64,000 nt of DNA from the NCBI GenBank assembly GCA_963803805.1, contig CAWDOD010000010.1:384001-448000 (forward strand), written 5' to 3'. Shown piece after piece: positions 13,306-42,787 of this stretch. The first letter of the stretch is position 1. The number at the start of each line of letters is the position of its first letter. Source of the stretch: an uncultured cyanobacterium (GTDB lineage: Bacteria; Cyanobacteriota; Cyanobacteriia; Cyanobacteriales; CAWCAG01). The notes beneath the pieces are model-generated. The model saw only the letters and a program-made list of their open reading frames with translations, searched no databases and was not told where the DNA came from. The position numbers were made by a program, and so were the translations under genes.

Positions 13306-13335
13306 GTCCCACTTATTTTTGCCTTTACTCAATCA

Positions 13336-25800: not shown

Positions 25801-27175
25801 GTTTACTGAGTTTCTTGAAGCAGGGTTAAAAGATAATAGCTTAGAAGAAAATCGCTTTGCCCCCCAATGGCAAGAAGGTGTGCAAACCTATGTTCAACGC
25901 ATTACCAGATTGCTTAAAAATCAAGAAACCCCCGGAAATAAATGGGGAGAAGTTTTACAAAAATTGGCGATCGCCGGGTATAAAAATACCTATGAATTAG
26001 CTGGCAGGTGTTTTTATTTAGCAGAGAAACTGCCCCAAGCAGTAACAGTTTGGGAAGAAGGGAAATTCACCCACCTCAAAGAATACAATATTGCCAAAGC
26101 TGAAGTTGTGGGCTTGCCTGCTGGACTAGAATTTCTTGCCAAAGTTCAACCTAATGGAGGAGAGTTAATTTTAAGCGCTTGGCAACAAGCAGGCAAACCC
26201 CATGAATACCAATGGTTACGACACATTGCCCCCATTTTAGAAGCCAAACAACAATATGCTAATGCTTTACTGGTTTATACTTGGCTCGATAACTTAATCA
26301 AAGTTAAATCCTGCTTTGCCCAATTCTGGCAACAAACATCTTCCTCTCCTTGCCCTTCCCTGCCTCGCCACAAACCCCTCAAAATCATCCTAAGTTACTA
26401 CTTCAATTCTCAATATTGGCAAGAAGCGATCGCCGCCATAGAAGCCTATTTACCCCAAATTAATGACTCGTCTTTCCCTTTTACTTTAGTTGAAGAAATA
26501 GCTAACTCTCAACTAACCTCAGAAAAACTGACCAAAAATCAACGCCAACACTACCAAAAGTTTATCAGAGAACAAATTCTTGATAATCCTAACTGGTCAC
26601 AACATCTTTCAATCGAAAAAATTGGTATCGCTTTAGAAAAAATTGGCTCTTTAGTAGAAACACTAGAGTTTTATGAAAAATATCTCAAACATCCTGACAA
26701 AAAATTACGCCAATTTGCCTGCGATCGCTGGTTAGCTACTAAAACTAACCAAGCAAAATATTTCCTCAATCAAGGGCAAACCGATAAAGCCAAACGCATT
26801 CACTCAGAAATTGCCAGGAAAGCAAAAAGATGGCAAAGCCAAATTAACTCTGTTGAATCAACCCTGCCAACTCAAAAAATTAGCAAACAGTTTGAAGTTG
26901 ACAATTTTGTAGTTGAAGTAACCAAAAATACTCAGCAAGTTCTAATTACTGATACTATTTCTGGTCAACAAATCCATATCAACTGCGCTACTTGCCAAAT
27001 AACAGTTGGCTCTATCATCCTACAGGCTCAAAATTGCCCAAGGCTCTCTTTTACTGAAGAAAACGGTGGTTACAGTGCCGTACTTCTCAAAAAAAAGGAA
27101 CAAATAACTTTAGAAGTCAATTTCCACCGGATTTCCCGAACCATTGTCTTGAAGTTTAAGGGCGATGATGTTTGA
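22862..27175 (+). CDS. Large SF1 (UvrD-type) helicase with putative N-terminal RelE-like region and TPR-like C-terminal half
   Basis: Walker A GQAGSGKST, Ia FLAYNERL, Walker B IFCDEAQD, III AGDPMQT, IV LESNYRS, V AKGLEF, VI LYVASSRA; helical repeats follow. Confidence 0.8.
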   Translation: MYVYRTSQFNRELERQKNLQPQVERLCSELATMRLDEVQSRFERVYPYLKRKEGNLRLIARIYRFGKEHILCWLVIFRRGDRRYEEFLREREQFKHSSWDGELQPSKLKQWLKEQKALNQIKQPRSQPLTPELLPWLDRPNWEIDTDGVSIYESESWVNQFQTPEIESRWLVFNQMIAEIADAETFIGEDTIWSDVKLHSKDDCYVLYSKINTADTPPLKVVFLLAPFFSNPSRVQIARIVEQIPSPLALKNRQFSAPISIAALFSNLKIDELNPLAKRAYPGYLLADETSWLAIEKEETANLALSAEEKAILHSVSTAKASLPLFLNGQAGSGKSTMLFHLFADYCYRHLCHCQAEGKDILSKPHPLFLAYNERLLKVAKERVIPLLESHHRFLARKEELTQIPDLSPFFQTFRSFLRNLLPKEESDRFNDAKYISFHRFRQLYKHNPWEYSPERSWLVIRTFIKGYHLDERDNYRSPEDYLEIPKRERTVPPEEFAAIYENVWKWYKQRTKEQGEWDDQDLIRRVLQLKSYCPEYTAIFCDEAQDFTQLELQLIMRLSAFSQYDLEHQHIECLPFAFAGDPMQTLNPTGFRWASLKAGFYNEVITALSPTGKLGLEMNFTELESNYRSLPAIVGVNNLIQLWRVVLFDIPELKPQKPRKTGEFVPQKYIIGENMLPEAVKYYLQDTIIIVPCDEGAEADYLQRDEHLRYLLGEGNNVEPHWNILSAIAAKGLEFRQVVLYKFGEFCQPEAWESHDHANEEVKYFFNKLYVASSRATERLFIVDTPLGERKLWQKASDPRELEEFLGELKQEKKQQQWREAIQLISLGTRPHEIATDDLESIAKIFVTEGLNTENPELLRRAQGAYQRLNKPQQAALCEARALKLEKQFLTAGNLFLKQNLVDQAWDCFWQGMCWGKLVVWYESLETGDWEREKETDVPESLRREIEADRQTILDRRESYRPLVNFMVAETDEVEAVVQFTEFLEAGLKDNSLEENRFAPQWQEGVQTYVQRITRLLKNQETPGNKWGEVLQKLAIAGYKNTYELAGRCFYLAEKLPQAVTVWEEGKFTHLKEYNIAKAEVVGLPAGLEFLAKVQPNGGELILSAWQQAGKPHEYQWLRHIAPILEAKQQYANALLVYTWLDNLIKVKSCFAQFWQQTSSSPCPSLPRHKPLKIILSYYFNSQYWQEAIAAIEAYLPQINDSSFPFTLVEEIANSQLTSEKLTKNQRQHYQKFIREQILDNPNWSQHLSIEKIGIALEKIGSLVETLEFYEKYLKHPDKKLRQFACDRWLATKTNQAKYFLNQGQTDKAKRIHSEIARKAKRWQSQINSVESTLPTQKISKQFEVDNFVVEVTKNTQQVLITDTISGQQIHINCATCQITVGSIILQAQNCPRLSFTEENGGYSAVLLKKKEQITLEVNFHRISRTIVLKFKGDDV
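27096..27140 (+). repeat. Left copy of the diverged direct repeat bounding the purine island (inside the helicase 3' end)
   Basis: 39/45 nt identical to 37039-37083. Confidence 0.9.
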
Positions 27176-28070
27176 GCCAGTGTTGAGCAATATCTAAACG
27201 ACGACAAATCCAAACCTGCTTATGACCTTGAACGTAATCGATAAACCTGGCTAAAGCTGCAATACGTCCTGGTTTTCCGGCTAGTCTAGCATGAAGTCCC
27301 ACTGACATCATTTTAGGTGCAGTGTTCCCTTCTGCATATAGAACATCAAAAGCATCTTTAAGATAAGTATAGAAATCGTTACCGCTACTGAAACCAGGGG
27401 CAACGCAGTATTTCATATCGTTGTTATCAAGAGTATAGGGAATAATTAAGTGAGATTTGCCTTCTACTTCTACCCAATAAGGCAAATCATCATTGTAAGC
27501 GTCAGAGTCATATAAAAAGCCTCCCTCTTCCACAATCAAGGAACGAGTGTTTAGACTAGGTGCATAGCGACAGTACCAACCCAAAGGGCGATCCCCTGTA
27601 AGTTTTTGCAAAGATGCAACCGCTTTTTTAATATGTTCTCTTTCTTCGGCTTCGTCTAATAAATGGTAGCCTATCCACCGCCAACCATGACAGCAAATAT
27701 CATACCCTGCATCTACGATTGCCTTTGCTGCTGCGGGGTTTCTTTCTAATGCTAAGGCTGCACCAAAAATAGTGACCTGGATATCTTTTTCTTTAAACAG
27801 GCGCATCAATCGCCAAAATCCAGCCCTACTACCATATTCATAAACAGACTCCACCTGTAAGTCTCGCATTCCTTTGTCCATAGAAGAACCAGGAACTTCC
27901 CTAAGATATATTTCTGAACTCTCATCTCCATCAGGAATTGAATATTCTGAGCCTTCTTCATAGTTAAGGACTATTTGTAAAGCTATTTTGGCATCTCCTG
28001 GCCATTTTGGATGAGGTGGGTTTGCACCATAACCAATTAAATCTCTGGGATAAGACATTTGTAAAATCAA
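27156..28070 (-). CDS. puuE: Allantoinase PuuE (polysaccharide deacetylase fold); likely start is the ATG at 28058
   Basis: YPRDLIGYG, LNYEEG, ESVYEYGSRAGFWR, HGWRW, DDLPYW, MMSVGLH. Confidence 0.93.
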   Translation of the reverse strand: MILQMSYPRDLIGYGANPPHPKWPGDAKIALQIVLNYEEGSEYSIPDGDESSEIYLREVPGSSMDKGMRDLQVESVYEYGSRAGFWRLMRLFKEKDIQVTIFGAALALERNPAAAKAIVDAGYDICCHGWRWIGYHLLDEAEEREHIKKAVASLQKLTGDRPLGWYCRYAPSLNTRSLIVEEGGFLYDSDAYNDDLPYWVEVEGKSHLIIPYTLDNNDMKYCVAPGFSSGNDFYTYLKDAFDVLYAEGNTAPKMMSVGLHARLAGKPGRIAALARFIDYVQGHKQVWICRRLDIAQHWLKHHRP

Positions 28071-28092
28071 AAATTATAAGTTCTGCCATTTA

Positions 28093-28106
28093 GTAGTTTT
28101 GGCTAC
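28093..28106. promoter_or_regulatory. NtcA box match upstream of puuE
   Basis: GTA-gttttggc-TAC. Spacing to the minus-strand TATAAT (28078-28073) is 14 nt, which is non-canonical. Confidence 0.45.
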
Positions 28107-28151
28107 CGATATTTAAGATAATCATCAATCGATCTTAGTTTTAGAGTATTT

Positions 28152-28164
28152 GTATACAGTATTC
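28152..28164. promoter_or_regulatory. Putative GntR operator, copy 1 (puuE promoter region)
   Basis: GTATACAGTATTC, one mismatch to the island consensus. Confidence 0.7.
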
Positions 28165-28294
28165 AAAATAAGCCCTCTCCATAAATCTTTCTAAGCTTTA
28201 TTGGGAGAGGCTTTGAGTTCTTGGCAAGATGTTATTCGGATGTTACCACCTTTGCTTTAAGAAATTTCAAGCTATTATGGAGGTATAGACAAAT

Positions 28295-28310
28295 TGTATA
28301 TTCTGTTACA
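28295..28310. promoter_or_regulatory. NtcA box
   Basis: TGTA-tattctgt-TACA, immediately upstream of the AAGGAG RBS of the 62-aa ORF. Confidence 0.7.
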
Positions 28311-28326
28311 GAAATAAGGAGAAAAT

Positions 28327-28515
28327 ATGTTTAACAACAATCAAAACCAAAATTGGACTACCCAAAAATTTATAAACTTAAGTAAAGCCCTCGAACAGGC
28401 TTACTGCCTGGGAACGGATAATACAAAATCGAGCAAAAAAGCAGATTCTTGGACTACAGACAAGTTTGTAGAAATGAGCAGATATTTGGCTTCTGCCTAT
28501 GGTGTAGATTTTTAA
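28327..28515 (+). CDS. Unknown 62-aa protein with two internal repeats
   Basis: Strong RBS AAGGAG. Repeats WTTQKFINLSKALEQAY and WTTDKFVEMSRYLASAY, 32 codons apart. Confidence 0.75.
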   Translation: MFNNNQNQNWTTQKFINLSKALEQAYCLGTDNTKSSKKADSWTTDKFVEMSRYLASAYGVDF

Positions 28516-28529
28516 TATTAAACTGGTTA

Positions 28530-29051
28530 CTAATTATTGATTTCTACAGGGGATTCTGAGTTACTATCTGCTACTTGCAAGTCTTCAATACCAATAGCTA
28601 TTGCACCTATTACTGCCACTGCCATACCAGTTAAGAACCGTAGAGAAAATTGCTGACGGAAAATTAGCCACCCACCCAATGTAGTAAAAATTGGCATCAT
28701 GTTATTCAGCAAAGTTGAATTAGCAATACTGGTTTGAGTTAAAGACCATGCCCAAAGTGCTAAAGATATAGAAAAACTAATTCCTGCTATTAATAATAAG
28801 GCAATCGCTCTTTTTGTATATTCAGGTTTTTGATTTGAAGATTTAAAACCGTTCCAAATAGCAAAAGCTGTTGCCGCAATCAACAGGCGATCGCCGGTAA
28901 TGGTATTGGGTTCGATTTCTACTTCGGCGATCGCAATTAAAATTGAAGCTGAAGCAATTCCTAATAGGGCAAAGCACAAAGCTATTGGTGTTAGCCAACT
29001 TGCTTCTAATTTTACTTTTTGGCCAATTTTACTAAGTTGAAATTGGTACAT
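28530..29051 (-). pseudogene. DMT/EamA family transporter, half-length (probably C-terminally truncated)
   Basis: One EamA repeat (SLTQTSIANSTLLNNMMPIFT..GWL). It ends right after the fifth helix, where EamA proteins usually carry a second repeat. Confidence 0.65.
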
Positions 29052-29083
29052 AAGTGTTCGTTTGATGACAAAAGAATTAACTA

Positions 29084-29129
29084 GTAGCTAAGAATACATT
29101 TTTACTTGAGCTAATTGTATACAGTATAC
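29084..29129 (+). promoter_or_regulatory. Canonical NtcA-activated promoter whose -10 overlaps GntR operator copy 2
   Basis: GTA-gctaagaa-TAC (29084-29097), exactly 22 nt, then TACAGT (29120-29125), which lies inside GTATACAGTATAC (29117-29129). Confidence 0.85.
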
Positions 29130-29174
29130 GTTATGTCTGAATAAACTCTTAAGTACAATTCCTCAGTTCAACAA

Positions 29175-30568
29175 ATGACAAATCAAGAAATAACTTTGGA
29201 AACAGACGATGTGCAAACAGAAGTACCATCTAGGATTGAATCAGACCTAATTTATGGTCTAGAAGCTCGCCCACCTTTTGTCGAGACAATATTTGTGGCC
29301 TTGCAGCACGTATTTGCCTGTTTTGTAGGAATTATTACCCCTGGATTGATTATTTGTGGTGCTTTAGAAGTACCTCCTGCTGATACTACCTTTATTCTTA
29401 GTATGTCTCTGGTAGTTTCAGGCATTGCAACCTTTATTCAAGCCAAAAGATTTGGCCCTGTGGGTTCAGGTTTACTAAGTGTTCAGGGAACAAGCTTTGC
29501 TTTTCTAGCCCCATTATCGGAGCAGGATTAGCAGTAAAAGGAGCTGGTGGCACTCCTCAAGAAGCCCTAAAACTTATCTTTGGCCTTTGCTTCTTTGGGG
29601 CATTTATCGAAATTTTTATTAGTCGTTTCTTGCACCTAGCTAATAAACTTATTACACCCTTAGTTACAGGAGTGGTAGTAACTCTAATTGGTTTGACTCT
29701 GATTAAAGTGGGTATTACCTCTATGGGTGGTGGTGTACCAGCCCAGAATGCTGAAACTTTCGGTAGCCCAGTTTTTTTAGGGGTAGCATTTTTAGTTTTA
29801 GCAGTAATTATTGCCCTCAATAGCACAACCAATAACTACCTACGGATGGCATCAATTGTCATTGGCTTAGTAGTAGGTTTTCTGGTTTCTATCCCATTAG
29901 GGCTAGTAGATTTTAGCAATTTAGCTAGCTTACCACCCGTTGCTTTGCCGATCCCTTTTCGCTATGGTTTAGGATTTGATTTTGGCGCATTTATTCCTTT
30001 TGCTTTTTTGTACTTAATTACGGCAATTGAGTCTATCGGGGATTTAACAGCTACTTCGGCTATTTCTGGTGAACCAATTGAAGGGCCCATATACTTCAAA
30101 CGCATCAAAGGTGGAATCTTAGGGGACGGGATTAACTCAATTATCGCCGCTTGCTTCAACACCTTCCCTAACACCACCTTTAGTCAGAATAATGGTGTGA
30201 TTCAACTAACCGGAGTAGGAAGTCGCTATGTGGGCTATTTTATCTCCGTAATCTTTGTCATTCTGGGTTTATTCCCCATAGTAGCGGGAGTTTTCCAAGC
30301 CCTACCCCAGCCTGTATTGGGTGGTGCAACCATTGTGATGTTTGGTACAGTAGCCGTAGCAGGAATTAAAATTCTCTCTTGTGTCAATCTTACTAAGCGT
30401 AACTCTATTATCCTCGCCGTATCTCTTGGTTTAGGTTTGGGCGTTACCTTTGTTCCCGAAATCCTAGAGAATATGCCTCCTTTAGTTACAAGCCTTTTCT
30501 CCTCTGGTATTTCAACAGGAGGAGTTAGTGCATTATTGTTGAATTTAATTTTGCCAGGAAGAGAGTAA
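29175..30568 (+). pseudogene. NCS2/NAT xanthine-urate permease split by a 1-nt deletion at 29508-29512
   Basis: ALQH and QGTSFAF are in the first part; the NAT motif TTFSQNNGVIQLTG is in the second. Adding one base in ctagccccatt gives 464 aa (FL-G/A-PIIGAGLAVK). Confidence 0.88.
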
Positions 30569-30571
30569 AAG

Positions 30572-31735
30572 ATGTACCAACTAAAAGCAATTGTAATTGG
30601 CGCAGGTATGGCTGGATTAGCCACAGGAATTGCTTTGCGTCAAGCAGGATATGAAGTAGAAATTTATGAGAAAACCAGAAAGCTTCGTCCTGCGGGGGCG
30701 GGGATTTCTCTTTGGTCTAATGGCATTAAAGTTCTCAATAAATTAGGGCTGGGTAAAGAGGTTGCAGCTATTGGCGGGCAGATGAACCGCATGGAGTATC
30801 GTAACAAACAAGGTGAGGTCTTAAATAATGTTAACTTAATACCTTTAATGGAACAGGTAGGACAAAGACCTTATCCTGTCTCCCGTACCGACTTGCAGCA
30901 GATGATGCTAAATGCTTTTGGTGAAGCAGATGTCCGCATGGGAATGCGTTGTGTGGAAGTTAAGCAGAATGCCGATAGTGCTACAGCAGTGTTTGAAGAT
31001 GGTACTACTGCTACAGGGGATGTGGTCATTGGTGCAGATGGTATACATTCAGTGGTGCGTACTTACTTAAACGGTGACAAAGTTGAACCCCGCTATGCCG
31101 GTTATGTTAACTGGAATGGTTTAGTAGAAGCTAGTCCTGATTTAGCAGAAGGTGATGTTTGGGTAATCTATGTTGGGGAAGGAAAACGCGCTTCGATGAT
31201 GCCTGTGGGAGGAAATAGGTTTTATTTCTTCTGCGGTTGTCCTCAACCTCAAGGGACAAAGACACCTCCAGAAAAGATCCGGGCTGAGTTGCAAGAAATC
31301 TTTGCAGGTTGGGCGCAACCAGTACAAAACTTGATTGCAAAACTTGATCCTCAACAGGTTAACCGTCTGGAAATTAGTGATATTGACCCTCTTGCTAATT
31401 TGGTTGAAGGTAGAATTGCTTTGGTAGGAGACTCTGCTCACGCTACTACTCCTACATTAGGACAGGGAGGTTGCCAAGCGATGGAGGATGCAGAGGTATT
31501 ATGTCGCTATTTGGTAACAACTAATATTAGCGTTGAAGATGCCTTAAAACGTTATGAGGCTGCACGGAAAGAAAGGGTGGCAAAGCTAGTTTTGAAAGCT
31601 CGTAAACGTACAGATACTATTTATAATAAAGAGCCAGATTTAACTCAGCAATGGTATGAGCAATTAAAGCAGGAAGAGGAAAAAGATGTTACTGATGCGA
31701 TCGCGAAAATTATTTTAGGAGGCCCTTTACATTAA
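30572..31735 (+). CDS. hpxO: FAD-dependent urate hydroxylase
   Basis: GAGMAG, ISLWSNG, GQRPYPVSR, RYAGYVNWNGLV, VGEGKRASMMPV, GDSAH..TP.LGQGGC; followed by uraH and uraD. Confidence 0.9.
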   Translation: MYQLKAIVIGAGMAGLATGIALRQAGYEVEIYEKTRKLRPAGAGISLWSNGIKVLNKLGLGKEVAAIGGQMNRMEYRNKQGEVLNNVNLIPLMEQVGQRPYPVSRTDLQQMMLNAFGEADVRMGMRCVEVKQNADSATAVFEDGTTATGDVVIGADGIHSVVRTYLNGDKVEPRYAGYVNWNGLVEASPDLAEGDVWVIYVGEGKRASMMPVGGNRFYFFCGCPQPQGTKTPPEKIRAELQEIFAGWAQPVQNLIAKLDPQQVNRLEISDIDPLANLVEGRIALVGDSAHATTPTLGQGGCQAMEDAEVLCRYLVTTNISVEDALKRYEAARKERVAKLVLKARKRTDTIYNKEPDLTQQWYEQLKQEEEKDVTDAIAKIILGGPLH

Positions 31736-32082
31736 TGTCAGGAAAACTAACAACTCACGTTTTGGATACAGCCAATGGTTGCCCTGGTAAAGGAATTGCG
31801 GTCGCTCTTTGGAATTTGGATTCTAAAACTCTGTTAAAAACAATAGAAACTAATCATGATGGCCGTACCGATGAACCATTATTAAATTCCCAAGAAATGG
31901 AAAAGGGAGTCTATGAATTAGTGTTTAGTGTTGGTGATTATTTTGCCCAATTTTCTACCTATTCTATGCCTCTTTTTTTAGACGAAATTCCCATCCGTTT
32001 TAATATTAATAATATTGGAGTTCACTATCATGTTCCTCTATTAGTTTCTCCTTGGTCTTATAGTACCTATCGAGGAAGCTGA
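31735..32082 (+). CDS. uraH: 5-hydroxyisourate hydrolase
   Basis: LTTHVLDTA, DGR, HYHVPLL, C-terminal YRGS. Confidence 0.96.
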   Translation: MSGKLTTHVLDTANGCPGKGIAVALWNLDSKTLLKTIETNHDGRTDEPLLNSQEMEKGVYELVFSVGDYFAQFSTYSMPLFLDEIPIRFNINNIGVHYHVPLLVSPWSYSTYRGS

Positions 32083-32089
32083 TTAAATA

Positions 32090-32596
32090 ATGAAGGAAAA
32101 GCAATACACAATTGCCAACTTAAATCAGATGTCTCAGGAGGAGTTTACGGCTGCTTTAGGAGATATTTGGGAAGACACACCAGAAATTGCTAAACAATCA
32201 TGGCAAAAGAAACCCTTTGCCAATTTAGAAGATTTGTATCAAGAGATGGTGGCAGTTGTTGATAATATGTCTGACGAAAAAAAGTTAGCCCTCATTCAAG
32301 CCCATCCAGATTTAGGAAGTAAGGCAAAGATGGCAGAAGCTTCAGTCCAAGAACAAGCTGGAGTAGGTTTAGACCGTTTATCAGAGTCAGAATATGAGCA
32401 TTTTTTAGAACTCAACCAAGCTTATCAAAATAAGTTTGGTTTTCCTTTTATAGTGGCAGTTAAATACCATACTAAAGAGAGTATTTTAGCGGACTTTGAA
32501 ACTCGTTTAGAAAACAACCAAGAGCAAGAAAAAAAACAGGCTTTAAAAGAAATTACTAAGATTGCACGACTACGTTTAGAGTCAATGGTGAGCTAA
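32090..32596 (+). CDS. uraD: OHCU decarboxylase
   Basis: AHPDLG, SVQEQAGVGL, YQNKFGFPFIVAV, IARLRL. Confidence 0.95.
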   Translation: MKEKQYTIANLNQMSQEEFTAALGDIWEDTPEIAKQSWQKKPFANLEDLYQEMVAVVDNMSDEKKLALIQAHPDLGSKAKMAEASVQEQAGVGLDRLSESEYEHFLELNQAYQNKFGFPFIVAVKYHTKESILADFETRLENNQEQEKKQALKEITKIARLRLESMVS

Positions 32597-32664
32597 TTAG
32601 CTAGATTTAAAATGCCTGTTTAGTTTGTCTTTGATTACTATATATTCTTGACTTCAAGCCTAAT

Positions 32665-32679
32665 TGTATACTGTATACA
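32665..32679 (-). promoter_or_regulatory. Putative GntR operator, copy 3 (porin promoter region)
   Basis: TGTATACTGTATACA, the reverse complement of TGTATACAGTATACA. Confidence 0.8.
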
Positions 32680-32748
32680 GCAATACTTTTCTAACTAGTT
32701 AAAAATGCTAATTTTACTGATGAGAATTAGTTGGTGTGAGAGGGAAAA

Positions 32749-34581
32749 ATGAGTATCAAAGAAACTTTAAACAGGTTTTATCTTACCAAAAAAAGAATTA
32801 AGTTGATTAATAAATTAAGTTTGTTACTTTTTCCTTTAACCTTATTATCTACGACTACAATTAAAACCCTAGCCTCAGAAGAAATAGTTAACTCCTCCAG
32901 ACTAGAAAGTGCTAACACTTTTGAAAAAATAAATAGCCTTGATGACTCCGATTGGATGTCTCAAGTTACTAACGTAAACCAGTTACGAGATGTATCTCCT
33001 AGAGACTGGGCTTATGAAGCATTACGTTCTTTAGTAGAGGGTTATGGTTGTATCACAGGATTTCCTGACCAAACCTATAGAGGAAACCAACCCTTATCTC
33101 GTTACGAATTTGCTGCGGGTTTAAGTTCTTGTCTTGACAAAATAGAACAACTAACTTTTTCTGAAGGAGTTACTCAGGAAGATTTAGAAAAAATGCAACG
33201 CCTCAGCCAAGAATTTGAGGCAGAACTCGCCATTATTTCTGAGAGAATAGATGACTTAGAAGCGCGTACTAACTTTTTAGAAGAGAATCAGTTTTCGACC
33301 ACAACTAAACTATCTGGTGACATCTTTTTTAACCTAACAGGTGCGGGTGCAGGAGATAATGTTTCTGTCGAAACTAGCTCTCTTAATGCTCCTTTTGCTT
33401 TGCGTCGGGCAGGCAGAGATACTAATAATAACCCCTTAGTTAGTACGGTTACTAATGATCCTGCAACTACTCTGAGCTATTATGCCTGGATTAACTTAAA
33501 TTCTTCTTTCACAGGAAGAGACAACTTAGCTGTTCAGTTAGTAGCAGGTAACGGAATTTCTCCTGTCAATAGCTTTGTTTCCGCCGGACTTTTTAATACC
33601 TTTGGTACTCCTTTTTTAGATCAAACGGGTACATCAAGTGGGGCAGGTAGTGTAGAAATTCGGGAACTATTTTATGATTTTCCTGTCGGAGAAAAACTGC
33701 GGGTAGTAGTTGGACCAAGAATTAATTGGTATCGCTATTTTGATAATAATCGCTATACTTTTTTCCTCACAGGGGCAAGTAGCTTTAACGCTATTGGTGG
33801 TACTTTAGTTAACCCCATTGATCGTGGTTCAGGGGCTGTAGCAACTTATAAAGCTAATGATTGGCTGACTTTTAAATTAGGCTACCTGGGAGAAAATACA
33901 GAGTTTTTACCTGCCCCTTTCTTTAATACCTCTTCTGATCCTAGCAAAGGTTTATTTAGTGGTACACAAACCTTAACTGCTGAAGTAGATTTAGCGATCG
34001 CAGATCAAGCCAACCTTCGCTTAATATACACCAGAGGAACTTTAGACAACAATCAACCCCTTTTTGATACCAATGGCAATCTCACTGGTTTTGGTGTTGG
34101 TGGCGCTACAGGAGAGCCTATCTATGGAGTAGCAGACGATGGTTTTGGTGGTACAATTGGTGATGCTCCCAGTGATACTTTTGCTGTTAACTTTGATTGG
34201 GCAATTACAGAAAGATTCGGCGTTTTTGGGCGATATAACTACGGTAGCACCGACATTTCTCCTCAAAATACTACCAGAAGCTCAGGAGAAGTTAATGCTC
34301 AAGCCTTTCAAGGTGGAGTTGCCTTCCCCGACTTAGGTAAAGAAGGTGCGTTAGGAACTCTTTCTTTTGTGATTCCTTTTGATGTTCTTGATGGAGAAGA
34401 ATTTCTTGCTTCTGGTAATGGTGATGGAGGCACTCAGTATGAGTTTGAAGCTACTTATTTTTATCCAGTTAATCGTAATTTAGCAATTGTTCCGGCCTTT
34501 TATTTCATTGCTAATCCTAACAACTTTGAGAGTAATCCCAGTATTTTTGTGGGTAATTTGCGAATGCAATTTAGGTTTTAA
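32749..34581 (+). CDS. Cyanobacterial SLH + OprB-type outer-membrane porin
   Basis: QVTNVNQLRDVSPRDWAYEAL, SRYEFAAGL, QFSTTTKL, C-terminal F. Confidence 0.92.
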   Translation: MSIKETLNRFYLTKKRIKLINKLSLLLFPLTLLSTTTIKTLASEEIVNSSRLESANTFEKINSLDDSDWMSQVTNVNQLRDVSPRDWAYEALRSLVEGYGCITGFPDQTYRGNQPLSRYEFAAGLSSCLDKIEQLTFSEGVTQEDLEKMQRLSQEFEAELAIISERIDDLEARTNFLEENQFSTTTKLSGDIFFNLTGAGAGDNVSVETSSLNAPFALRRAGRDTNNNPLVSTVTNDPATTLSYYAWINLNSSFTGRDNLAVQLVAGNGISPVNSFVSAGLFNTFGTPFLDQTGTSSGAGSVEIRELFYDFPVGEKLRVVVGPRINWYRYFDNNRYTFFLTGASSFNAIGGTLVNPIDRGSGAVATYKANDWLTFKLGYLGENTEFLPAPFFNTSSDPSKGLFSGTQTLTAEVDLAIADQANLRLIYTRGTLDNNQPLFDTNGNLTGFGVGGATGEPIYGVADDGFGGTIGDAPSDTFAVNFDWAITERFGVFGRYNYGSTDISPQNTTRSSGEVNAQAFQGGVAFPDLGKEGALGTLSFVIPFDVLDGEEFLASGNGDGGTQYEFEATYFYPVNRNLAIVPAFYFIANPNNFESNPSIFVGNLRMQFRF

Positions 34582-34625
34582 TTAAACTAAGCCTTGTTAT
34601 ATTTCTACCCTACTCCTTGCCATAG

Positions 34626-35861
34626 ATGAAATTATCAACAACAACTCAATTACTCGTAAATAGCGATCGCCTCAATCAAAGCATTGCCCGTTTAGCACAA
34701 ATTGGTCAACTACCTAACGGTGGTGTAAAACGTATTGCCTATAGCAAAGAAGATAGAGAAGCCCGTAACCTAATCAGGCACTGGATGGAAGAATCTCAGA
34801 TGCAGGTAAGGATTGATGCAGGGGGTAATATCATTGGCAGATATCCAGGTAAGCATCTTGATGCACCTGCGATCGCAACAGGTTCTCATATTGACACCGT
34901 CCCTTGTGGAGGACATTACGACGGTGCTTATGGAGTATTAGCAGGATTAGAAGTTGTAAGAATTCTCCAAGAAAATCAGCTTAGGCTAGATCCCCCCTTA
35001 GAAGTAATTGTCTTTACCGATGAAGAAGGTAGCATGATTGGTTCTAAAGCTATTTCTGGTAGAGTAATCAAAGACTCAAATTATTATCGTCGCTCTGATG
35101 GTACAGATATTGCCACTTGTTTAGAGAAAGTTGGCGGTAACTGGCATAACATTACTCAAGCCCGTCTCAATCCCCAAGATATCGCTATCTTTGTCGAACT
35201 TCATGTCGAACAAGGGCCTGTACTAGAGTCTATGGGTAAACAAATTGGCGTAGTTGAAGGTATTGTCGGACAAAGAAGATTTGATATTACCGTCAAAGGT
35301 AGCGCCAATCATGCTGGGACAACCCCGATGCAGATGCGTTGTGACGCTTTAGTGGCTGCTTCTCAGGTGGTTTTAGCTGTTAATCAAATTGCTAACAGCC
35401 CTGGACAACAGGTAGCTACAGTAGGGAAAATGGCAGTTTTGCCCAATGCAGCTAATGTTGTTCCTGGTTGGGTAGAAATGAGTTTAGATATTCGTGATTT
35501 ATCTAGCTTACATATAAATAATTTGCTCGAACAGTTACGCCTTCATTTAGAAGAAATTGCTGTTACTACCAATACTCAAATTAGATTGATACCCTGTTTA
35601 GACAACGAACCAGTTTTAGCTGAGCCTTATATCCAAAAGGCGATTGCCCTTAGTTGTGAAAGCCTTAACTTAAGCTATACTCACCTACCCAGTCGTGCTA
35701 GTCATGATGCCCAAGAATTGGCTCAAATTACTGACATGGGAATGATTTTTGTTCCTAGCAAAATGGGAGTCTCCCACGATGCCAGTGAATATACCTCTCC
35801 AGAACAATGTACCCAAGGTGCGAATGTTTTGTTGCAAACATTAATTCACTTAGGTGGTTGA
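34626..35861 (+). CDS. M20 Zn-dependent amidohydrolase (allantoate amidohydrolase / N-carbamoylase family)
   Basis: GSHIDTV, YDG.YGV, DEEG, ELHVEQG, NHAGTTPM, HDA, SH. Confidence 0.88.
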   Translation: MKLSTTTQLLVNSDRLNQSIARLAQIGQLPNGGVKRIAYSKEDREARNLIRHWMEESQMQVRIDAGGNIIGRYPGKHLDAPAIATGSHIDTVPCGGHYDGAYGVLAGLEVVRILQENQLRLDPPLEVIVFTDEEGSMIGSKAISGRVIKDSNYYRRSDGTDIATCLEKVGGNWHNITQARLNPQDIAIFVELHVEQGPVLESMGKQIGVVEGIVGQRRFDITVKGSANHAGTTPMQMRCDALVAASQVVLAVNQIANSPGQQVATVGKMAVLPNAANVVPGWVEMSLDIRDLSSLHINNLLEQLRLHLEEIAVTTNTQIRLIPCLDNEPVLAEPYIQKAIALSCESLNLSYTHLPSRASHDAQELAQITDMGMIFVPSKMGVSHDASEYTSPEQCTQGANVLLQTLIHLGG

Positions 35862-36287
35862 TTGCTTTTGTTTATACATTGCCCAACCGCCCAGATTGGA
35901 AATATCGGGCCAGTTGTGTTTTTCGATTAATTCTTGAGGATAAAGCATGGCGATTGCTTGTTCTCCTCCTTCTAAATCCACCGTATCAGGATACATATGG
36001 GGAGGCTCATTTACCAAGAGATATTCGTACTCTTCCGTTGTCATTTCATAAATTTCCCCAGGAATGCTTACTCCCCCTGTTTCTACAGCATAAATTGCCG
36101 GATGCCAGCCATTTTCTGCGGCATGGAGGCGATATTTAGGAAGGGTTTTTGCTGCCTTAATGAACTTTGCAGACTGGAGATTTTGATGGTCTGGCTGACC
36201 TTTTAAAGCTGAACCACAGATAAAAACTTGCTTGATGCTTGATTCTGTTATTGTCATGAATTCATCTAGATATTTAAGAGATGCCAA
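35850..36287 (-). CDS. Stand-alone allophanate hydrolase C-terminal-like (gamma-glutamylcyclotransferase fold) protein
   Basis: ICGSALKGQPDHQNL, KYRL, IPGEIY and DISNLGGW follow the pattern of the allophanate hydrolase C-domain. It overlaps the gntR stop and is co-oriented with it. Confidence 0.7.
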   Translation of the reverse strand: MASLKYLDEFMTITESSIKQVFICGSALKGQPDHQNLQSAKFIKAAKTLPKYRLHAAENGWHPAIYAVETGGVSIPGEIYEMTTEEYEYLLVNEPPHMYPDTVDLEGGEQAIAMLYPQELIEKHNWPDISNLGGWAMYKQKQSTT

Positions 36288-36960
36288 TATTATTAATAAT
36301 TTCCAGTTCCTGCACTACTCTGACTTTACTAGCTATTAAATGTTCTGTAATCGTTTCTTGAGCAAAATTTGCATCTCCACCGGCGATCGCTTCATAAATT
36401 TGTCTATGTTCAAGACGAATTTCTAATACTTGGGGGTTATGTTTGGTGGTTTGTATTCTTAACAATGCCATTTTGTCAAAAACTTGTTCTAACAAAGTTA
36501 ATAGCCATTGATTACCAGAACTTTCTGCAATTAAATGATGAAATTGATAGTCTATTTCTAGTAGTTGAAGGGTATTAGATTTATCCTGCTGAGACTCTAG
36601 CAACTTCTCTGCCAAAAGTACGCATTTTTCTAATTTTTTTAGTTGTTTGGAGGTGATTTGTTCGCAAGCATCCGCAGCAGAAAGTTTCTCTAAAGCCATA
36701 CGACAATCATAAAGTTGTATGGCATCCTGAACAGAAAGGGTAGCGACCCTAAAACCGCCATTAGGGTTAGATACTATTAATTTTTCTCGTTGCAGTTGAC
36801 CGATTGCTTCACGAATGGGGGTGCGGCTAACCTGTAATTGTTCGGCTAATTTCGTTTCTACTACTCTTTCTCCTGAAGCTAAATCTCCTTTAAGAATAAT
36901 TTTTCTCAAAGCTTGATATACTTGTTGCCGTAAAGATTGACTTCTTTGAATAGCGAGCAT
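36274..36960 (-). CDS. GntR/FadR-subfamily (FCD) transcriptional regulator
   Basis: LAEQLQVSRTPIREA HTH, DYQFHHLI..SGN, EHRQIYEAI, EH. Confidence 0.93.
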   Translation of the reverse strand: MLAIQRSQSLRQQVYQALRKIILKGDLASGERVVETKLAEQLQVSRTPIREAIGQLQREKLIVSNPNGGFRVATLSVQDAIQLYDCRMALEKLSAADACEQITSKQLKKLEKCVLLAEKLLESQQDKSNTLQLLEIDYQFHHLIAESSGNQWLLTLLEQVFDKMALLRIQTTKHNPQVLEIRLEHRQIYEAIAGGDANFAQETITEHLIASKVRVVQELEIINNIGIS

Positions 36961-37017
36961 AACCTGAGTTTTTACTTGGGAAAGACTATTAAATGGTTAA
37001 GTGTTTTTATCCTTTGA

Positions 37018-37030
37018 GTATACAGTATAC
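37018..37030. promoter_or_regulatory. Putative GntR operator, copy 4 (autoregulatory)
   Basis: GTATACAGTATAC about 57 nt upstream of the gntR ATG. Confidence 0.8.
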
Positions 37031-37038
37031 GAGACACG

Positions 37039-37106
37039 AGGAACAAACAATTTTAAAACTCAATTTCCACCGAATCTCCCGAAGTATCATCATTAGAATG
37101 CCCTAA
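37039..37106 (+). pseudogene. Displaced second copy of the helicase gene 3' end (right boundary of the island)
   Basis: Translates EQTILKLNFHRISRSIIIRMP* versus the helicase EQITLEVNFHRISRTIVLKF. Confidence 0.88.
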
Positions 37107-37531: not shown

Positions 37532-40500
37532 GTGTATCGGTGTATAGGTGAGATGCTCCAACAAGCAATATTAAGCATTAATACGCTCAAATCCCCAGAG
37601 CGAAAAGAGAGTGCTACCGTACAAGTAGGTATTTTGCACTCCTTAAGTGGCACTTTGGCTTTCAGAGAAACTTCTCTTGTAGAAGCGGAACTGATGGCCA
37701 TAGAAGAGATTAATGCTACAGGAGGGGTACTGGGCAAAATAATTGAGCCAGTTGTTGCTGATGGAGCTTCTGACCCCACTGAATTTGAGCAACTGGCTAA
37801 AGAACTAATTCAAGAGTGTGGTATCAACAATATTTTTGGTTGCTATAGTTCCTCAATTCGTAAAGCTGTCTTACCAATCTTTGAAGAATTGAATGCCCAA
37901 CTTTGGTATCCGGCTCAATATGAAGGGCTAGAATCTTCTAAAAATATTTTTTATACAGGTTCTTGCCCCAACCAACAAGCTGAACCTGGAGTTAATTGGT
38001 TATTGAGTAATGGTAACAAGAAGTTTTACTTAGTCGGTACAGAGGATATTTTTTCCCACGTAGCTCACAAACTGATTAAACAACAGCTTGAACAAGCAGG
38101 AATAGTTGTTGGTGAAGTCTATATGCCTGAAGGCATTGAAAATTTTAGACCTATTTTAGGTAACATTCGACAAATTCAACCTGATGTTATCATTAATACC
38201 CTTAATGAAGCCAGCAATCTTCTGTTTTATAGACAGTATCGAGAGTTAGATTTTCCTGGTGATACTATCGTCATGGCCCTTCGTTTAAGCGAAGTAGAAT
38301 TGCAAGAGATTGGCAAAGATGCCCAAGGAACTTATGCCACTCGCAGCTATTTTCAAAATCTTGATACCCCACGCAACCAAGATTTTATTAGGAATTTTCA
38401 AAATCGCTACGGTAAAAAGCGAGTTATCAACGAAGCTATCGAAACAGCCTATACCCAAGTTTATCTATGGAAACAAGCAGTAGAATTAGCCCAATCATTT
38501 GATTTAGAAAGATTGCGGGTAGCTGTGTATGGAGAAACTTTTAAAGCTCCTAACGGGTTAGTACAACTTGAACCCAACCACCATATTTGGAAACCCTATC
38601 GTATTGCTCAAGTCTTACCCACAGGAAACTTTAGCATCATTCATACTGCTCCTCAACCAGCTAAGCCTCTACCTTGGCTCAGTTTAGGAGAAAATAGTCC
38701 TCACCACTCTGAGGTAGTTACTGGTTTACTTTCAGAAGTTTCTTTGTGGATTCAAAGAGCCAAAGACTTACAAAAAAAATCTTCAGATTTACAGAGCAAT
38801 ATGGCCCAGCTACAAAGGGAAATGGCTCAAACTCAGAGAATTTCAACTCCCTTACCAGAATCTGAAGCTGAACTACAGAGCCTCTTTGAGGCGATGACAA
38901 AACTAATTTTGGTAATTAACAACCAGGGACGCTATCTCAAAATCGCCCCCAACCATAGCGATCTTTCCTACCAAGATGGTAGTCAATTGTTGGGTAAAAC
39001 CCTAGATGAAGTCTTTGACCGTAACCAAGCTGACACTTTTTTAGGTTATATCCAAGAAGCCTTGGAAAGCCAAGAAACTGTTCATTTTGAATATTGCCTC
39101 ACCATTAGAGAAGAGCAATTTTGGTTAGCCGGGAGCCTTTCCCCGATTTCCACAGATTCTGTACTTTGGGTGGCTAGGGACATTAGCCAACAGAAACAAG
39201 AAGAAGAGAATCTTAAACAAGCCAAAATAGAATTAGAAGAGAAAGTTGCTGAGCGTACTGCTGCCTTAAAAGAATCCAATGATCGCTTAGTAGGCGAGGT
39301 TGTCGAACGAACTCAAGCAGAAAAAGAATTAAGGGCCGCTAGAGATCAACTCCAGGCAGTATTAGAAGCAGTGCCTGGAATAGTTTCTCGTATTAGTGAT
39401 GACCTGCACTACCTAGAGGTTAATAGCCATCTAGCAGATATGTTTGAGCTACCCAGAGGAGCCTTTGTCGGCCAAGATATTGGTTTTCTCAATAGTAGCT
39501 CCGAATTCAACGACTTTGTTCGCCAATTTTTTGCGAAAAAAGACATTCAAGATGAATATAAAGAGATATCTGCCATTGTTAAAGGTGAAAAACGTAAGTT
39601 TTTACTAGTAGCTCAAAAATACGACGAAAACCGAGCAACTTTCATTGTTGGTATTGATATTACCAAACGTCATCAGGCAGAACAAGAACTTCTAGAAGCG
39701 AAAGAGCAAATGGAAACGGTGTTAGAAGCTGTACCAGGGATTGTTTCTCGCATCAGCCATGACCTAAGTTACTTAGAAGTTAATAGCCATCTAGCAGAGA
39801 TGTTTGAGCTGCCTAGAGAAGACTTTGTGGGTAAAGATATTGGTTTTCTTAATAGTAGTTCCGAATTTAAAGAATTTGTCCGGCAATTCTTTGCCAAAAA
39901 AGAAGCTCAAGACGAATACACAGAGGTATCTGCCACCTTCAAAGGGGTGGAGAAAAGACTGTTGTTAGTAGCTAGGAAATATAATCATAACCAAGCAACT
40001 TTTATTGTCGGCATTGATATTACTCAACGCCACCGGGTAGAAGAGCAACTTGTAGATGCAAAAGGTCAAATGGAAGCGGTGCTAGAAGCCGTACCAGGAA
40101 TTGTTTCTCGTATTAGCAAAGACCTGAACTACTTAGAAGTTAACCGCCATTTAGCAGAAACGTTTAACTTGCCAAGAGAAGCTTTTGTGGGTCAGAATAT
40201 TGGCTTTCTCAATAGTAGCTCGGAATTTAATACTTTTGTCCGCAAATTTTTTGCTGATAATACGATTCAAGATGCTTTCCGTGAAGTATCAGCTAAGGTT
40301 AACGGTATTGAGCGCAAGTATCTAATTGTTGCTCAAAAATATGATCACAACAAAGCCGCATTTACTATTGGTATTGATATTACTGAACGCCAACAAGCAG
40401 AAGAACGCCTGCGCCAAGCAGAAGCTAAATATCGTAACATTTTTGAAAATGCCGTAGAAGGAATTTTTCAAACAACTCCAGAAGGATACTTTATTAGCGC

Positions 40501-42295
40501 TAATCCTGCCCTAGCACGCATTTACGGTTATGATTCTCCAGAAGATTTAATTATCAACCTGGGGAGTATTGGTGATAATCTCTACGTTGAACCAGGAACT
40601 AGAGCAGAATTTATCCGCAGACTCAATCAGTATGGTTCGGTAGTCGGTTTTGAAGCTCAAGTTTATCGCCGCGACGGCACTTTAACTTGGATTTCTGAAA
40701 ATGCCCGTACCGTTTGTGATGAAGAAGGTAATCTCCTTTTTTACGAAGGTACAGTAGAAGATATAGCCGAACGCAAAGAAGCTCAAGAAGCTCTACAAAG
40801 AGCAAACGAACAGTTAGAAACTAGAGTCGAAGAACGTACTGCTGCTTTAAGAGACTCCAACCGTCAGTTGCTCATTGAAGTTAGTGAACGCCAAAAAGTA
40901 GAAGCGGAATTGCGGGCTTTATTTGCTGCCATGACAGATGTGATTGCGGTGTTTGATGCTCAAGGACGTTATCTTAAAATTGTTTCTACTAATTCAGAAC
41001 TTTTGTACAATCCTTCAACGGAGAGAATTGGCAAGACGGTTTATGAAGTTTTGCCTTCTAGTCAAGCAAAACTGTTTGTCAGTCATATTCAACGGGCCCT
41101 CAACACGGGACAAACAGTTAATTTAGAATACAACTTGCCGGTGACTCCAAATGGTAAAGATGCTCCGATGCAAGAAATGTGGTATGCAGCAAATGTTTCC
41201 CCTATGCCAGATAATTGCGCTATTTGGGTGGCCAGAGATATAACAGAACGCAAGTATGCAGAAAAAGCTTTAGAAAAAGCCGAAGAAAAGTATCGCAGTA
41301 TCTTTGAAAATGCGGCTGAGGGGATTTTCCAAATTGCTCCTGACGGTCGTCATATAAGTGCTAATCCGGCTTTAATTAATATGTATGGTTATCTTTCCTT
41401 AAGAGACTTAATTGGCAGCTTACCTAATGTCAACGAACAACTCTATGTAAACAGGGAACGCCGTCAAGAATTTCTGCGACTTTTGGAACGGGATGAGTTA
41501 GTATCCAACTTTGAATCGCAAATTTATCGTAAAGATGGTAGTATCATCTGGATTTCTGAAAATACTAGGGTAGTACGAGATGAAGTTGGTAAGTTGCTTT
41601 ACTACGAAGGTACAGCCACAGATATTACTAAGCGTAAAGAAGCAGAGGAAGCTTTGCGAGAAGAACAGGCTCGTTCAGAACGCCTCTTACTAAACATTTT
41701 GCCCAAAACCATTGCTGAGCAACTCAAACATTACGAAGGTTCTTTAGCAGAAAGATTTGATGAAGCAACGGTTCTTTTCGCAGATATTGTTGAGTTTACC
41801 CCTATTTCTGCTGATGTTGCCCCGTTAGAATTAGTTAGCACTCTTAATCAAATTTTCTCTTGCTTTGATCAACTGGCCGAAGAGCTTGGTTTAGAAAAAA
41901 TCAAAACTATTGGTGATGCTTATATGGTAGCAGGGGGGTTGCCTGTTCCTAGAGCAGACCATGTTGAAGCGATCGCTGATATAGCCCTAGCTATGCAAAA
42001 AGAAATTGGTCGTTTCAAACAAGAAAATGGTAAACCATTCCGCCTCCGCATCGGTATTAATACAGGACCAGTAGTCGCAGGAGTAATTGGTATTAAGAAA
42101 TTTATCTACGACTTGTGGGGGGATACAGTTAATGTTGCTAGCAGAATGGAATCCCAAGGAGCCGAAGGAGAAATTCAAGTTACCGAAGCTACTTACAAAC
42201 GGTTGCAGGAAAACTATTTATTTATCCATCGAGGTAAAGTGAATATTAAAGGAAAAGGAGATATGAAAACCTATTGGTTAAAGGGAAGAAAATAA
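37532..42295 (+). CDS. Adenylate cyclase with N-terminal UrtA/AmiC-like binding domain and 7 PAS domains (likely start is the ATG at 37553)
   Basis: VGILHSLSGT, ADGASD, RKAVLP and YPAQYEGLE (UrtA-like). PAS repeats follow. Cyclase motifs FADIVEFT, KIKTIGDAYM and YDLWGDTVNVASRMES carry the ATP-specifying K/D. Confidence 0.9.
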   Translation: MYRCIGEMLQQAILSINTLKSPERKESATVQVGILHSLSGTLAFRETSLVEAELMAIEEINATGGVLGKIIEPVVADGASDPTEFEQLAKELIQECGINNIFGCYSSSIRKAVLPIFEELNAQLWYPAQYEGLESSKNIFYTGSCPNQQAEPGVNWLLSNGNKKFYLVGTEDIFSHVAHKLIKQQLEQAGIVVGEVYMPEGIENFRPILGNIRQIQPDVIINTLNEASNLLFYRQYRELDFPGDTIVMALRLSEVELQEIGKDAQGTYATRSYFQNLDTPRNQDFIRNFQNRYGKKRVINEAIETAYTQVYLWKQAVELAQSFDLERLRVAVYGETFKAPNGLVQLEPNHHIWKPYRIAQVLPTGNFSIIHTAPQPAKPLPWLSLGENSPHHSEVVTGLLSEVSLWIQRAKDLQKKSSDLQSNMAQLQREMAQTQRISTPLPESEAELQSLFEAMTKLILVINNQGRYLKIAPNHSDLSYQDGSQLLGKTLDEVFDRNQADTFLGYIQEALESQETVHFEYCLTIREEQFWLAGSLSPISTDSVLWVARDISQQKQEEENLKQAKIELEEKVAERTAALKESNDRLVGEVVERTQAEKELRAARDQLQAVLEAVPGIVSRISDDLHYLEVNSHLADMFELPRGAFVGQDIGFLNSSSEFNDFVRQFFAKKDIQDEYKEISAIVKGEKRKFLLVAQKYDENRATFIVGIDITKRHQAEQELLEAKEQMETVLEAVPGIVSRISHDLSYLEVNSHLAEMFELPREDFVGKDIGFLNSSSEFKEFVRQFFAKKEAQDEYTEVSATFKGVEKRLLLVARKYNHNQATFIVGIDITQRHRVEEQLVDAKGQMEAVLEAVPGIVSRISKDLNYLEVNRHLAETFNLPREAFVGQNIGFLNSSSEFNTFVRKFFADNTIQDAFREVSAKVNGIERKYLIVAQKYDHNKAAFTIGIDITERQQAEERLRQAEAKYRNIFENAVEGIFQTTPEGYFISANPALARIYGYDSPEDLIINLGSIGDNLYVEPGTRAEFIRRLNQYGSVVGFEAQVYRRDGTLTWISENARTVCDEEGNLLFYEGTVEDIAERKEAQEALQRANEQLETRVEERTAALRDSNRQLLIEVSERQKVEAELRALFAAMTDVIAVFDAQGRYLKIVSTNSELLYNPSTERIGKTVYEVLPSSQAKLFVSHIQRALNTGQTVNLEYNLPVTPNGKDAPMQEMWYAANVSPMPDNCAIWVARDITERKYAEKALEKAEEKYRSIFENAAEGIFQIAPDGRHISANPALINMYGYLSLRDLIGSLPNVNEQLYVNRERRQEFLRLLERDELVSNFESQIYRKDGSIIWISENTRVVRDEVGKLLYYEGTATDITKRKEAEEALREEQARSERLLLNILPKTIAEQLKHYEGSLAERFDEATVLFADIVEFTPISADVAPLELVSTLNQIFSCFDQLAEELGLEKIKTIGDAYMVAGGLPVPRADHVEAIADIALAMQKEIGRFKQENGKPFRLRIGINTGPVVAGVIGIKKFIYDLWGDTVNVASRMESQGAEGEIQVTEATYKRLQENYLFIHRGKVNIKGKGDMKTYWLKGRK
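39361..40440 (+). repeat. Three tandem 360-bp PAS-domain repeats inside the cyclase
   Basis: LEAVPGIVSRIS.DL.YLEVN.HLA..F.LPR..FVG..IGFLNSSSEF units start near 39361, 39721 and 40081. Confidence 0.9.
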
Positions 42296-42746: not shown

Positions 42747-42787
42747 ATTATGACATTAATCATTAATCATTAATCATTTAACATTTA

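Follow-up and report, generated by a model that had tools for sequence, protein, structure and literature searches.

How did a complete set of urate-catabolism genes come to lie between two diverged copies of the end of a single gene, and which of the two copies is the original one? This question is raised by a stretch of DNA of 64,000 nucleotides (nt) from an uncultured cyanobacterium (contig CAWDOD010000010.1), the whole of which we call the window and within which all positions are counted. A large gene for a UvrD-like helicase is followed there by an insert, the island, whose ten open reading frames (ORFs) form one urate-catabolism unit, and the 3′ end of the helicase gene is present on both sides of it, attached to the gene on the left and detached from it on the right (Table 1). 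'Helicase' serves as a working label for the ORF at 22862–27175, which matched the Pfam family UvrD_C with 30.4 bits (cut-off 25.6) and UvrD-helicase with 22.1 bits, below the cut-off of 23, and matched no NCBIfam family. A preliminary description made from the letters of this DNA had proposed that the cluster came from a related cyanobacterium and integrated at the helicase 3′ end, leaving the tail of one allele at each boundary. In the reading that we favour, with a probability of roughly 0.55, the cluster entered the helicase gene at its end by recombination and brought a heterologous tail allele with it.

The duplicated end of the helicase gene

Positions 27096–27140 and 37039–37083 are direct repeats identical at 39 of 45 nt, as had been described. 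The pair was recovered by self-blastn of the window (86.7% identity, E 8.7e-8) and in a listing of its repeats, in which it was the fourth strongest in the 64 kb, behind three PAS repeats within the cyclase gene. The chance expectation for such a pair is 5e-8, obtained from the probability of at least 39 matches in 45 multiplied by all direct position pairs at the base composition of the window. The homology spans 21 codons (27095–27157 vs 37038–37100), with 46/63 nt and 11/21 amino acids (aa) identical. The two tail peptides translate as the preliminary description had stated, and its remark that many of the differences are synonymous or conservative was borne out by crude synonymous (dS) and non-synonymous (dN) divergences of 0.51 and 0.29. 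In both copies the homology starts abruptly at AGGAACAAA, an identical 9-nt block lying exactly at its 5′ edge, and the sequence upstream of 37038 (36960–37037) showed no similarity to the helicase sequence upstream of 27095. The second junction (37037/37038) is thereby without homology, a feature by which homology-facilitated illegitimate recombination (HFIR) is recognized.

The longest run identical between the copies is 13 nt (27117–27129). With up to three mismatches allowed, a 22-nt core of the repeat occurs exactly twice in the 64 kb (none expected), and it had no match in 80 helicase loci from other cyanobacteria, which we obtained with 10-kb flanks by a helicase-profile search of genome contigs. 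The dispersed repeat that the preliminary description had allowed for was not seen: the repeat pair is real and, in the sequence searched (the 64-kb window and the 80 loci), not dispersed. It is very improbable that the pair reflects chance similarity, a short dispersed repeat or an assembly chimera. The evidence is drawn from the window and the 80 loci, which gives such explanations what room they have. However, the chance expectation is far too small, the core has only its two copies, the right copy is in frame with the stop of the family and agrees with the tail of an orthologue at 18 of 21 aa, and an identical run of 13 nt is too short to mislead an assembler. Short dispersed repeats unrelated to that of the helicase tail also occur in the window and form two small families, one at 6865–6905, 9761–9794 and 856–880 and the other at 11102–11163, 42732–42793 and 14777–14805; their members are 25–63 nt long and 76–88% identical, and some are inverted.

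The bounds of the insert are tight, namely 27156–37037 (9,882 nt), with joints at 27157/27158 and 37037/37038. At the left joint the attached copy preserves the helicase reading frame and reads KEQITLEVNFHRISRTIVLKF-KGDDV-stop at the end of the 1437-aa ORF (left-type ending ...ITLEVNFHRISRTIVLKF). The helicase ORF, which extends to 27175, and the convergent puuE ORF, whose stop begins at 27156, overlap by 20 nt, which is the run into the puuE antisense noted before; the stop described for the right copy was likewise confirmed as a TAA at 37104–37106. The puuE stop codon (27156–27158) overlaps the codon after F1432. We aligned the last 100 residues of the helicase with 30 relatives, whose ends all fall in the F1432 column, just before it or one residue beyond it, indicating that the helicase stop was lost exactly at the puuE stop. 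PuuE itself ends in ...KHHRP, like the ...KHHPPL of its relatives, and its database form has 300 aa and starts at 28058.

AlphaFold2, run on the 100-residue alignment, predicted an all-β domain with a predicted local-distance difference test (pLDDT) score of 85.3 and a predicted template-modelling (pTM) score of 0.73. In this model the C-terminal domain (26873–27172) has ten strands, the duplicated tail makes up the last two (residues 77–84 and 89–96 of the 100), and H-R-I-S is the predicted turn between them. A fold search of the predicted domain against the PDB gave no match at E≤0.001. The all-β domain is probably incomplete without a tail, which would account for the retention of a substitute.

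Polarity of the two tail copies

A search of 5.8 billion proteins gave 22 homologues of helicase residues 1000–1437, and only two of them were close: P0002, with 88% overall identity and the ending ...LLKQEEQTILKLNFQGLSRSIIIRMP, and P0003, with 80% and the ending ...LLKKEGQVILKLNFQKPSRKIVIRMP (in short form ...EEQTILKLNFQGLSRSIIIRMP and ...EGQVILKLNFQKPSRKIVIRMP respectively). Comparison of the tails with such orthologues, a check suggested by the preliminary description, separated the two copies. The right copy is identical to P0002 at 18 of 21 aa and to P0003 at 14 of 21, and ends in ...IRMP-stop as both of them do, whereas the left copy is identical to each of them at only 8 of 21. We then counted sites in a triplet analysis of the window protein (P0001) against P0002 and P0003. 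In the gene body before residue 1412, the window protein and P0002 alone agree at 165 sites and P0002 and P0003 alone at 46. The corresponding numbers are 4 and 1 for the right tail, which does not differ from the gene body (Fisher p=1.0), and 1 and 8 for the left tail, which does (p=6e-5 against the gene body; p=0.007 against residues 1320–1411). The identity of 18/21, the same stop and the body-like triplets together identify the right copy as the original tail of the gene. On these comparisons the right copy is the native tail, displaced, and the left attached tail is the anomalous, discordant copy.

Ten aa differ between the copies; nine of these changes are derived on the left, none on the right, and one is ambiguous (binomial p=0.004). 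The identity of the right copy to P0002 is 86%, and that of the adjoining coding region only 55–72%. Such better conservation than that of the adjacent coding region suggests that the right copy has spent little time as non-coding DNA, and its displacement would thus be recent. We read the detached copy (37038–37106) as the original last 22 codons and stop of the gene, now a young non-coding relic. When the surroundings of the right copy were scanned for terminators and promoters, none appeared on the plus strand beyond the stop of the relic. An ORF of 37 codons starting with ATG (36993–37106) runs through palindrome 4 of Table 1 and the relic tail; it has no family match and is probably spurious.

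The left copy keeps a glutamate that is nearly invariant in the family (L-E-x) and that is replaced by lysine in the right copy, P0002 and P0003. The left/right differences, being mostly conservative or synonymous, fit an allele that has long evolved as coding sequence rather than one changed by a burst of mutations. These observations bear on an in-situ origin of the two copies, according to which the insertion point of the cluster lay 8 nt short of the end of the helicase ORF and ~60 nt of target were duplicated, after which the attached copy diverged fast, under relaxed or compensatory selection once the natural end had been lost, and the detached copy hardly changed. We regard this as unlikely. 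It would have on its side the derived loop H-R-I, which both copies share and which is most simply explained by common descent within the genome, as well as an island composition equal to that of the flanks and the lack of a known donor allele. However, a neutrally evolving relic would be expected to change no more slowly than a coding copy, yet all nine polarizable differences lie on the coding copy; the dS of about 0.5 between the copies, crude as it is, and the ancestral glutamate kept on the left but lost in the right copy, P0002 and P0003 also speak against it. A duplication of ~60 nt is far beyond the usual target duplications, and we know of no insertion mechanism that gives target duplications of 60 nt.

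The polarity might also be reversed, the left tail and the cluster being native and the right copy having come with the cyclase flank, whether by rearrangement of the chromosome or from a relative similar to P0002. No close cyclase orthologue was traced to P0002, in data that are incomplete, so that the adjacency of helicase and cyclase may not be ancestral. Yet both the gene body (165 vs 46 sites) and the right copy group with P0002, whereas the left copy does not, and a native tail discordant with its own gene would be required, making this improbable.

Proposed arrival of the cluster at the gene end

We infer the following course of events, in which the left tail and the cluster are both of foreign origin. 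A urate cluster under a GntR-type regulator (27156–37037) would have recombined into the very end of the helicase gene. The left tail most likely accompanied the cluster, and the donor would be a related cyanobacterium whose puuE already lay directly against the helicase stop; this would explain the lost stop and the five-codon run-on into the puuE antisense. The helicase 3′ region would have served as the homologous anchor, with a crossover at or upstream of AGGAACAAA, and the other end would have been joined without homology at 37037/37038. The route may have been HFIR or a Campbell-type single crossover of a circularized fragment, both giving the same product, and neither a transposase nor an island-encoded integrase would have been involved. 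The native tail would have been cut off and left in front of the old downstream region, while the substitute tail would keep the last two β-strands of the helicase and thus the gene whole.

The left tail is wholly of one type and the right tail wholly of the other, as for a crossover at the 5′ edge of the homology. A crossover inside the 13-nt core was rejected, since it would make each allele half P0002-like, in opposite senses (5/8 vs 0/8 differences by hand count). A mosaic test along the helicase found the C-terminal third to be less conserved in all pairs; the best mosaic breakpoint, at residue 1329, was rejected as the edge of a donor tract because it reflects a fast-evolving linker.

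Several observations weigh against the proposed recombination with a foreign tail. The first is the loop H-R-I, for which P0002 and the family consensus have Q-G-L. Its sharing would make the two copies sister alleles at that point, in conflict with the ancestral glutamate of the left copy, and may reflect convergence, a short patch of conversion, or a closely related donor whose tail evolves fast; the H and R fall in the identical block 27117–27129, so that a short conversion patch could explain these two. The proposal of one allele per boundary in the preliminary description therefore held for the homologous and differently diverged tails at the edges, but did not predict the shared H-R-I. 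Secondly, the statistics are based on 21 codons and two close relatives only, and upstream of the repeat the signal of a divergent left allele is ambiguous (residues 1400–1411). Thirdly, the composition carries no signal: the GC content of the island is 0.393 (0.395–0.396 in the flanks), its tetranucleotide distance of 0.0865 is within the 0.080–0.118 of other windows, and the density of HIP1 sites is 0.71 vs 0.57 per kb. Such flank-like composition would mean that the donor was compositionally alike, that the DNA has resided here for long, or that it is not foreign. The several HIP1 sites reported within the island were counted as seven GCGATCGC sites. For the suggested origin in a related cyanobacterium, the purine cluster and the lack of mobility genes were found as stated, but the composition gives no sign of foreignness. 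Finally, no left-type tail, and hence no donor, was seen among the 22 homologues from the 5.8 billion proteins, and no empty-site allele was found among the 80 loci, which are too distant to inform on the ancestral site: the best of them is 69% identical and lies on a 5.2-kb contig, the others reach at most 52%, and no DNA of a close relative is included.

The 80 loci showed no synteny with the window, and no TauE, cyclase or core urate-pathway gene was present near the helicase; the only shared neighbours were an EamA-type gene in one locus and OprB-type porin genes in two. Downstream sequence was available for 70 other helicase loci, and none of them showed a displaced tail, the best score being 64 in the window, at most 47 in the other loci and up to 43 in upstream controls. 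The displaced tail is thus a one-off, and the helicase end is not a recurrent hotspot in the available genomes. The nearest locus (L001 104–5060), on the 5.2-kb contig of Symploca sp. SIO2E6, has its gene in two ORFs (104–3418 and 3444–5060) and is either interrupted or mis-assembled. The best named matches of PuuE (88–93%) are mostly from Pleurocapsales, and the nearest named helicases in genome contigs are from Symploca (69%) and then Spirulina (about 51%); since PuuE is so conserved, the contrast between Pleurocapsales and Spirulina is no evidence of transfer. Neither a PuuE of at least 88% identity nor a close cyclase orthologue was traced beside the P0002 or P0003 helicase, in contig data that are incomplete.

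The Pfam scan of the ten island ORFs confirmed the earlier statement that no integrase or transposase lies between the copies, and neither these nor the five flanking and 38 further ORFs of the window (53 in total) had an integrase, transposase or recombinase domain. An integrative element of the integrase-mediated type would be recognized by a tyrosine or serine recombinase of its own next to an attachment site, which was not found in the window, and by direct repeats derived from the 3′ end of a target gene that is restored by the copy of the element, which are present. Neither a transposase nor terminal inverted repeats, the marks of a transposon or insertion sequence, were found, and among the 25 longest inverted repeats listed for 22–43 kb there is none that pairs the island ends. 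A megablast search of 26800–37300 against plasmids gave no match, and an Rfam scan of 22–43 kb gave a chance-level match only.

It has been described that in Escherichia coli carrying the element e14 the icd gene runs into a diverged but functional tail supplied by the element, whereas its original C-terminal end is left beyond the insert as the pseudogene icdC (PMC13626634). Here as there, the 3′ end of the target gene is duplicated at both edges of the insert. However, e14 is a cryptic prophage with its own site-specific recombination and SOS-induced excision, whereas the present insert is a metabolic cluster without an integrase, its tail comprises only 21 codons, and its copies are far more diverged (27% of nt). 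The likeness raises the possibility of site-specific integration of a mobilizable cassette with an att site at the helicase 3′ end and a replacement tail of its own, the integrase being encoded elsewhere and the shared AGGAACAAA serving as strand-exchange core. An attL/attR architecture like that of e14 (PMC13626634), the identical 9-nt block exactly at the 5′ edge and the fact that each tail is entirely of one type, as for a crossover at that edge, are consistent with it. Nevertheless we find this doubtful, slightly more so than the in-situ duplication, because no integrase, excisionase or remnant of either was found in the island or the 64 kb, both island ends are intact metabolic or regulatory genes, and neither the 70 other loci nor the plasmid search gave any trace of such a cassette. 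A broader proposal, that the cluster is an integrase-less mobile cassette which targets the helicase 3′ end by means of a trans-acting recombinase or the machinery of competence and recombination and carries its own tail, is speculative and we give it little weight; if true, cyanobacterial metabolic regulons would travel as gene-end cassettes, recognizable by displaced tails.

Besides e14 in icd, HFIR is the closest analogue of the recombination that we favour. Jackson et al. (2009) is reportedly a reference for C-terminal displacement in Rhs and type VI secretion system (T6SS) arrays. In HFIR and in Rhs/T6SS C-terminal displacement, one end has a homologous anchor, the other end is non-homologous and the old 3′ part is orphaned (PMC5361080, PMC3240628). 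By analogy, the present event would share with them the proposed anchor in a conserved gene, the second join without homology and the displaced 3′ part. However, those systems swap variable toxin tips with immunity genes and recur as arrays, whereas here a homologous tail was swapped in a single event with a 9.9-kb catabolic regulon as payload. Also well known, for example in marine cyanobacteria, are genomic islands that have partial copies of the 3′ part of a tRNA gene as flanks. They too have a direct repeat of a gene 3′ end at both borders, but in the present case the target is protein-coding and the repeats are diverged and not near-identical. The event is of a known kind and reveals no new mechanism. 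What the displaced tail adds is that it dates and orients the gain of the cluster at single-nucleotide resolution, giving the old side, the joints and the evidence that the gene was kept whole. Scars of this type would be a cheap, annotation-free marker of recent acquisitions that have neither an integrase nor a composition anomaly; island finders based on GC content, k-mers or mobility genes would overlook this island.

The urate cluster and its surroundings

The insert is a coherent, self-contained cluster for urate catabolism, in which the functions of the enzymes are predicted (Table 1). All five predicted urate-pathway enzymes (HpxO, HIU hydrolase, OHCU decarboxylase, PuuE and allantoate amidohydrolase), by which clusters of the HpxO–PuuE route are recognized, scored above their NCBIfam cut-offs. 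As in known HpxO/PuuE urate clusters, the same five enzymes are accompanied by an NCS2 permease and a GntR regulator; the differences are the location in a cyanobacterial chromosome, the SLH/OprB porin and the candidate 13-nt palindromic operator. A full-text literature search found no description of such urate clusters in cyanobacteria. The cluster points to a nitrogen-scavenging trait, the use of urate, with a candidate regulator–operator pair.

The 13-nt palindrome GTATAC(A/T)GTATAC has four sites in the window, all of them in intergenic regions of the urate cluster. Its shorter form GTATACWGTAT gave 8 strand matches compared with 1.39 expected, and 8 were reached in none of 100 shuffles. 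The four palindromes may be operators of the GntR/FCD regulator (36274–36960), and we treat them as candidates.

Table 1 Positions of the helicase gene, its two tail copies, the island genes, the operator-like palindromes and the cyclase gene in the window
Feature	Position	Strand	Match or remark
Large UvrD-like helicase/tetratricopeptide repeat (TPR) gene, 1437 aa	22862..27175	+	ORF; insertion point at its 3′ end
Left attached tail copy, 21 codons, KEQITLEVNFHRISRTIVLKF	27095..27157	+	Discordant allele (on sequence comparison); includes 45-mer 27096–27140
Junction-made extension KGDDV + stop	27158..27175	+	Read from antisense of puuE 3′ end
puuE allantoinase, left-most island gene, intact	27156..28070	-	TIGR03212 461.5 bits, cut-off 424.6
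Operator-like palindrome 1, imperfect	28152..28164	.	Upstream of puuE
EamA-type transporter gene, truncated, 173 aa, one EamA domain	28530..29051	-	Pfam EamA
Operator-like palindrome 2, GTATACAGTATAC	29117..29129	.	Between EamA fragment and permease gene
Xanthine/urate permease (NCS2), frameshift-split near 29505–29515	29175..30568	+	Pfam Xan_ur_permease; NCBIfam pbuX, ncs2
Flavin adenine dinucleotide (FAD)-dependent urate hydroxylase HpxO	30572..31735	+	NF033623 614.9 bits, cut-off 500
5-Hydroxyisourate (HIU) hydrolase	31735..32082	+	TIGR02962 127.8 bits, cut-off 87.45; Pfam Transthyretin
2-Oxo-4-hydroxy-4-carboxy-5-ureidoimidazoline (OHCU) decarboxylase	32090..32596	+	TIGR03164 197.2 bits, cut-off 96.25
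Operator-like palindrome 3, GTATACTGTATAC	32666..32678	.	Upstream of porin gene
SLH/OprB-type outer-membrane porin	32749..34581	+	Pfam OprB, SLH; NCBIfam por_somb 325.4 bits, cut-off 100
Allantoate amidohydrolase (M20)	34626..35861	+	NF006771 446.3 bits, cut-off 399
Small protein like allophanate-hydrolase C-terminal domain/GGACT	35850..36287	-	Pfam AH_C 95.6, GGACT 50.8 bits
GntR/FCD regulator, right-most island gene	36274..36960	-	Pfam GntR, FCD
Operator-like palindrome 4, GTATACAGTATAC	37018..37030	.	Upstream of gntR; ends 8 nt before right tail copy
Right detached tail copy, EEQTILKLNFHRISRSIIIRMP + TAA	37038..37106	+	Displaced native helicase 3′ end; includes 37039–37083
Adenylate/guanylate cyclase, UrtA-like periplasmic-binding domain, PAS repeats	37532..42295	+	Pfam Peripla_BP_5, PAS, Guanylate_cyc; outside island

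Two genes of the cluster are not whole. The match of the truncated EamA protein to the YddG profile is confined to C-terminal positions (186–285 of 297), and an adjoining ORF of 62 aa (28327–28515) had no match in NCBIfam; together they suggest an earlier rearrangement inside the cluster. In the permease, positions 2–73 of the Xan_ur_permease profile fall in the ORF at 29175–29531 and positions 116–389 in that at 29630–30568. From 29402 onwards the second frame is open, and it continues through the break, and the frameshift lies at a run of four C. The split permease is therefore either a pseudogene or the product of a homopolymer sequencing error.

Beyond the right joint, the cyclase has 1587 aa and a UrtA-like domain, which resembles urea-binding proteins, and its gene contains three tandem PAS units of 360 nt at 39338–40357. 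Its nearest homologue is 82% identical over residues 1–460. On the other side, the only tRNA gene of the window, the minus-strand tRNA-Arg(CCG) at 21783–21855, is located 1 kb ahead of the start of the helicase gene and not at an island border. Further to the left, a DNA-methylase fragment of 151 aa is followed by a gene for a restriction endonuclease of the Bpu10I type (12099–14247).

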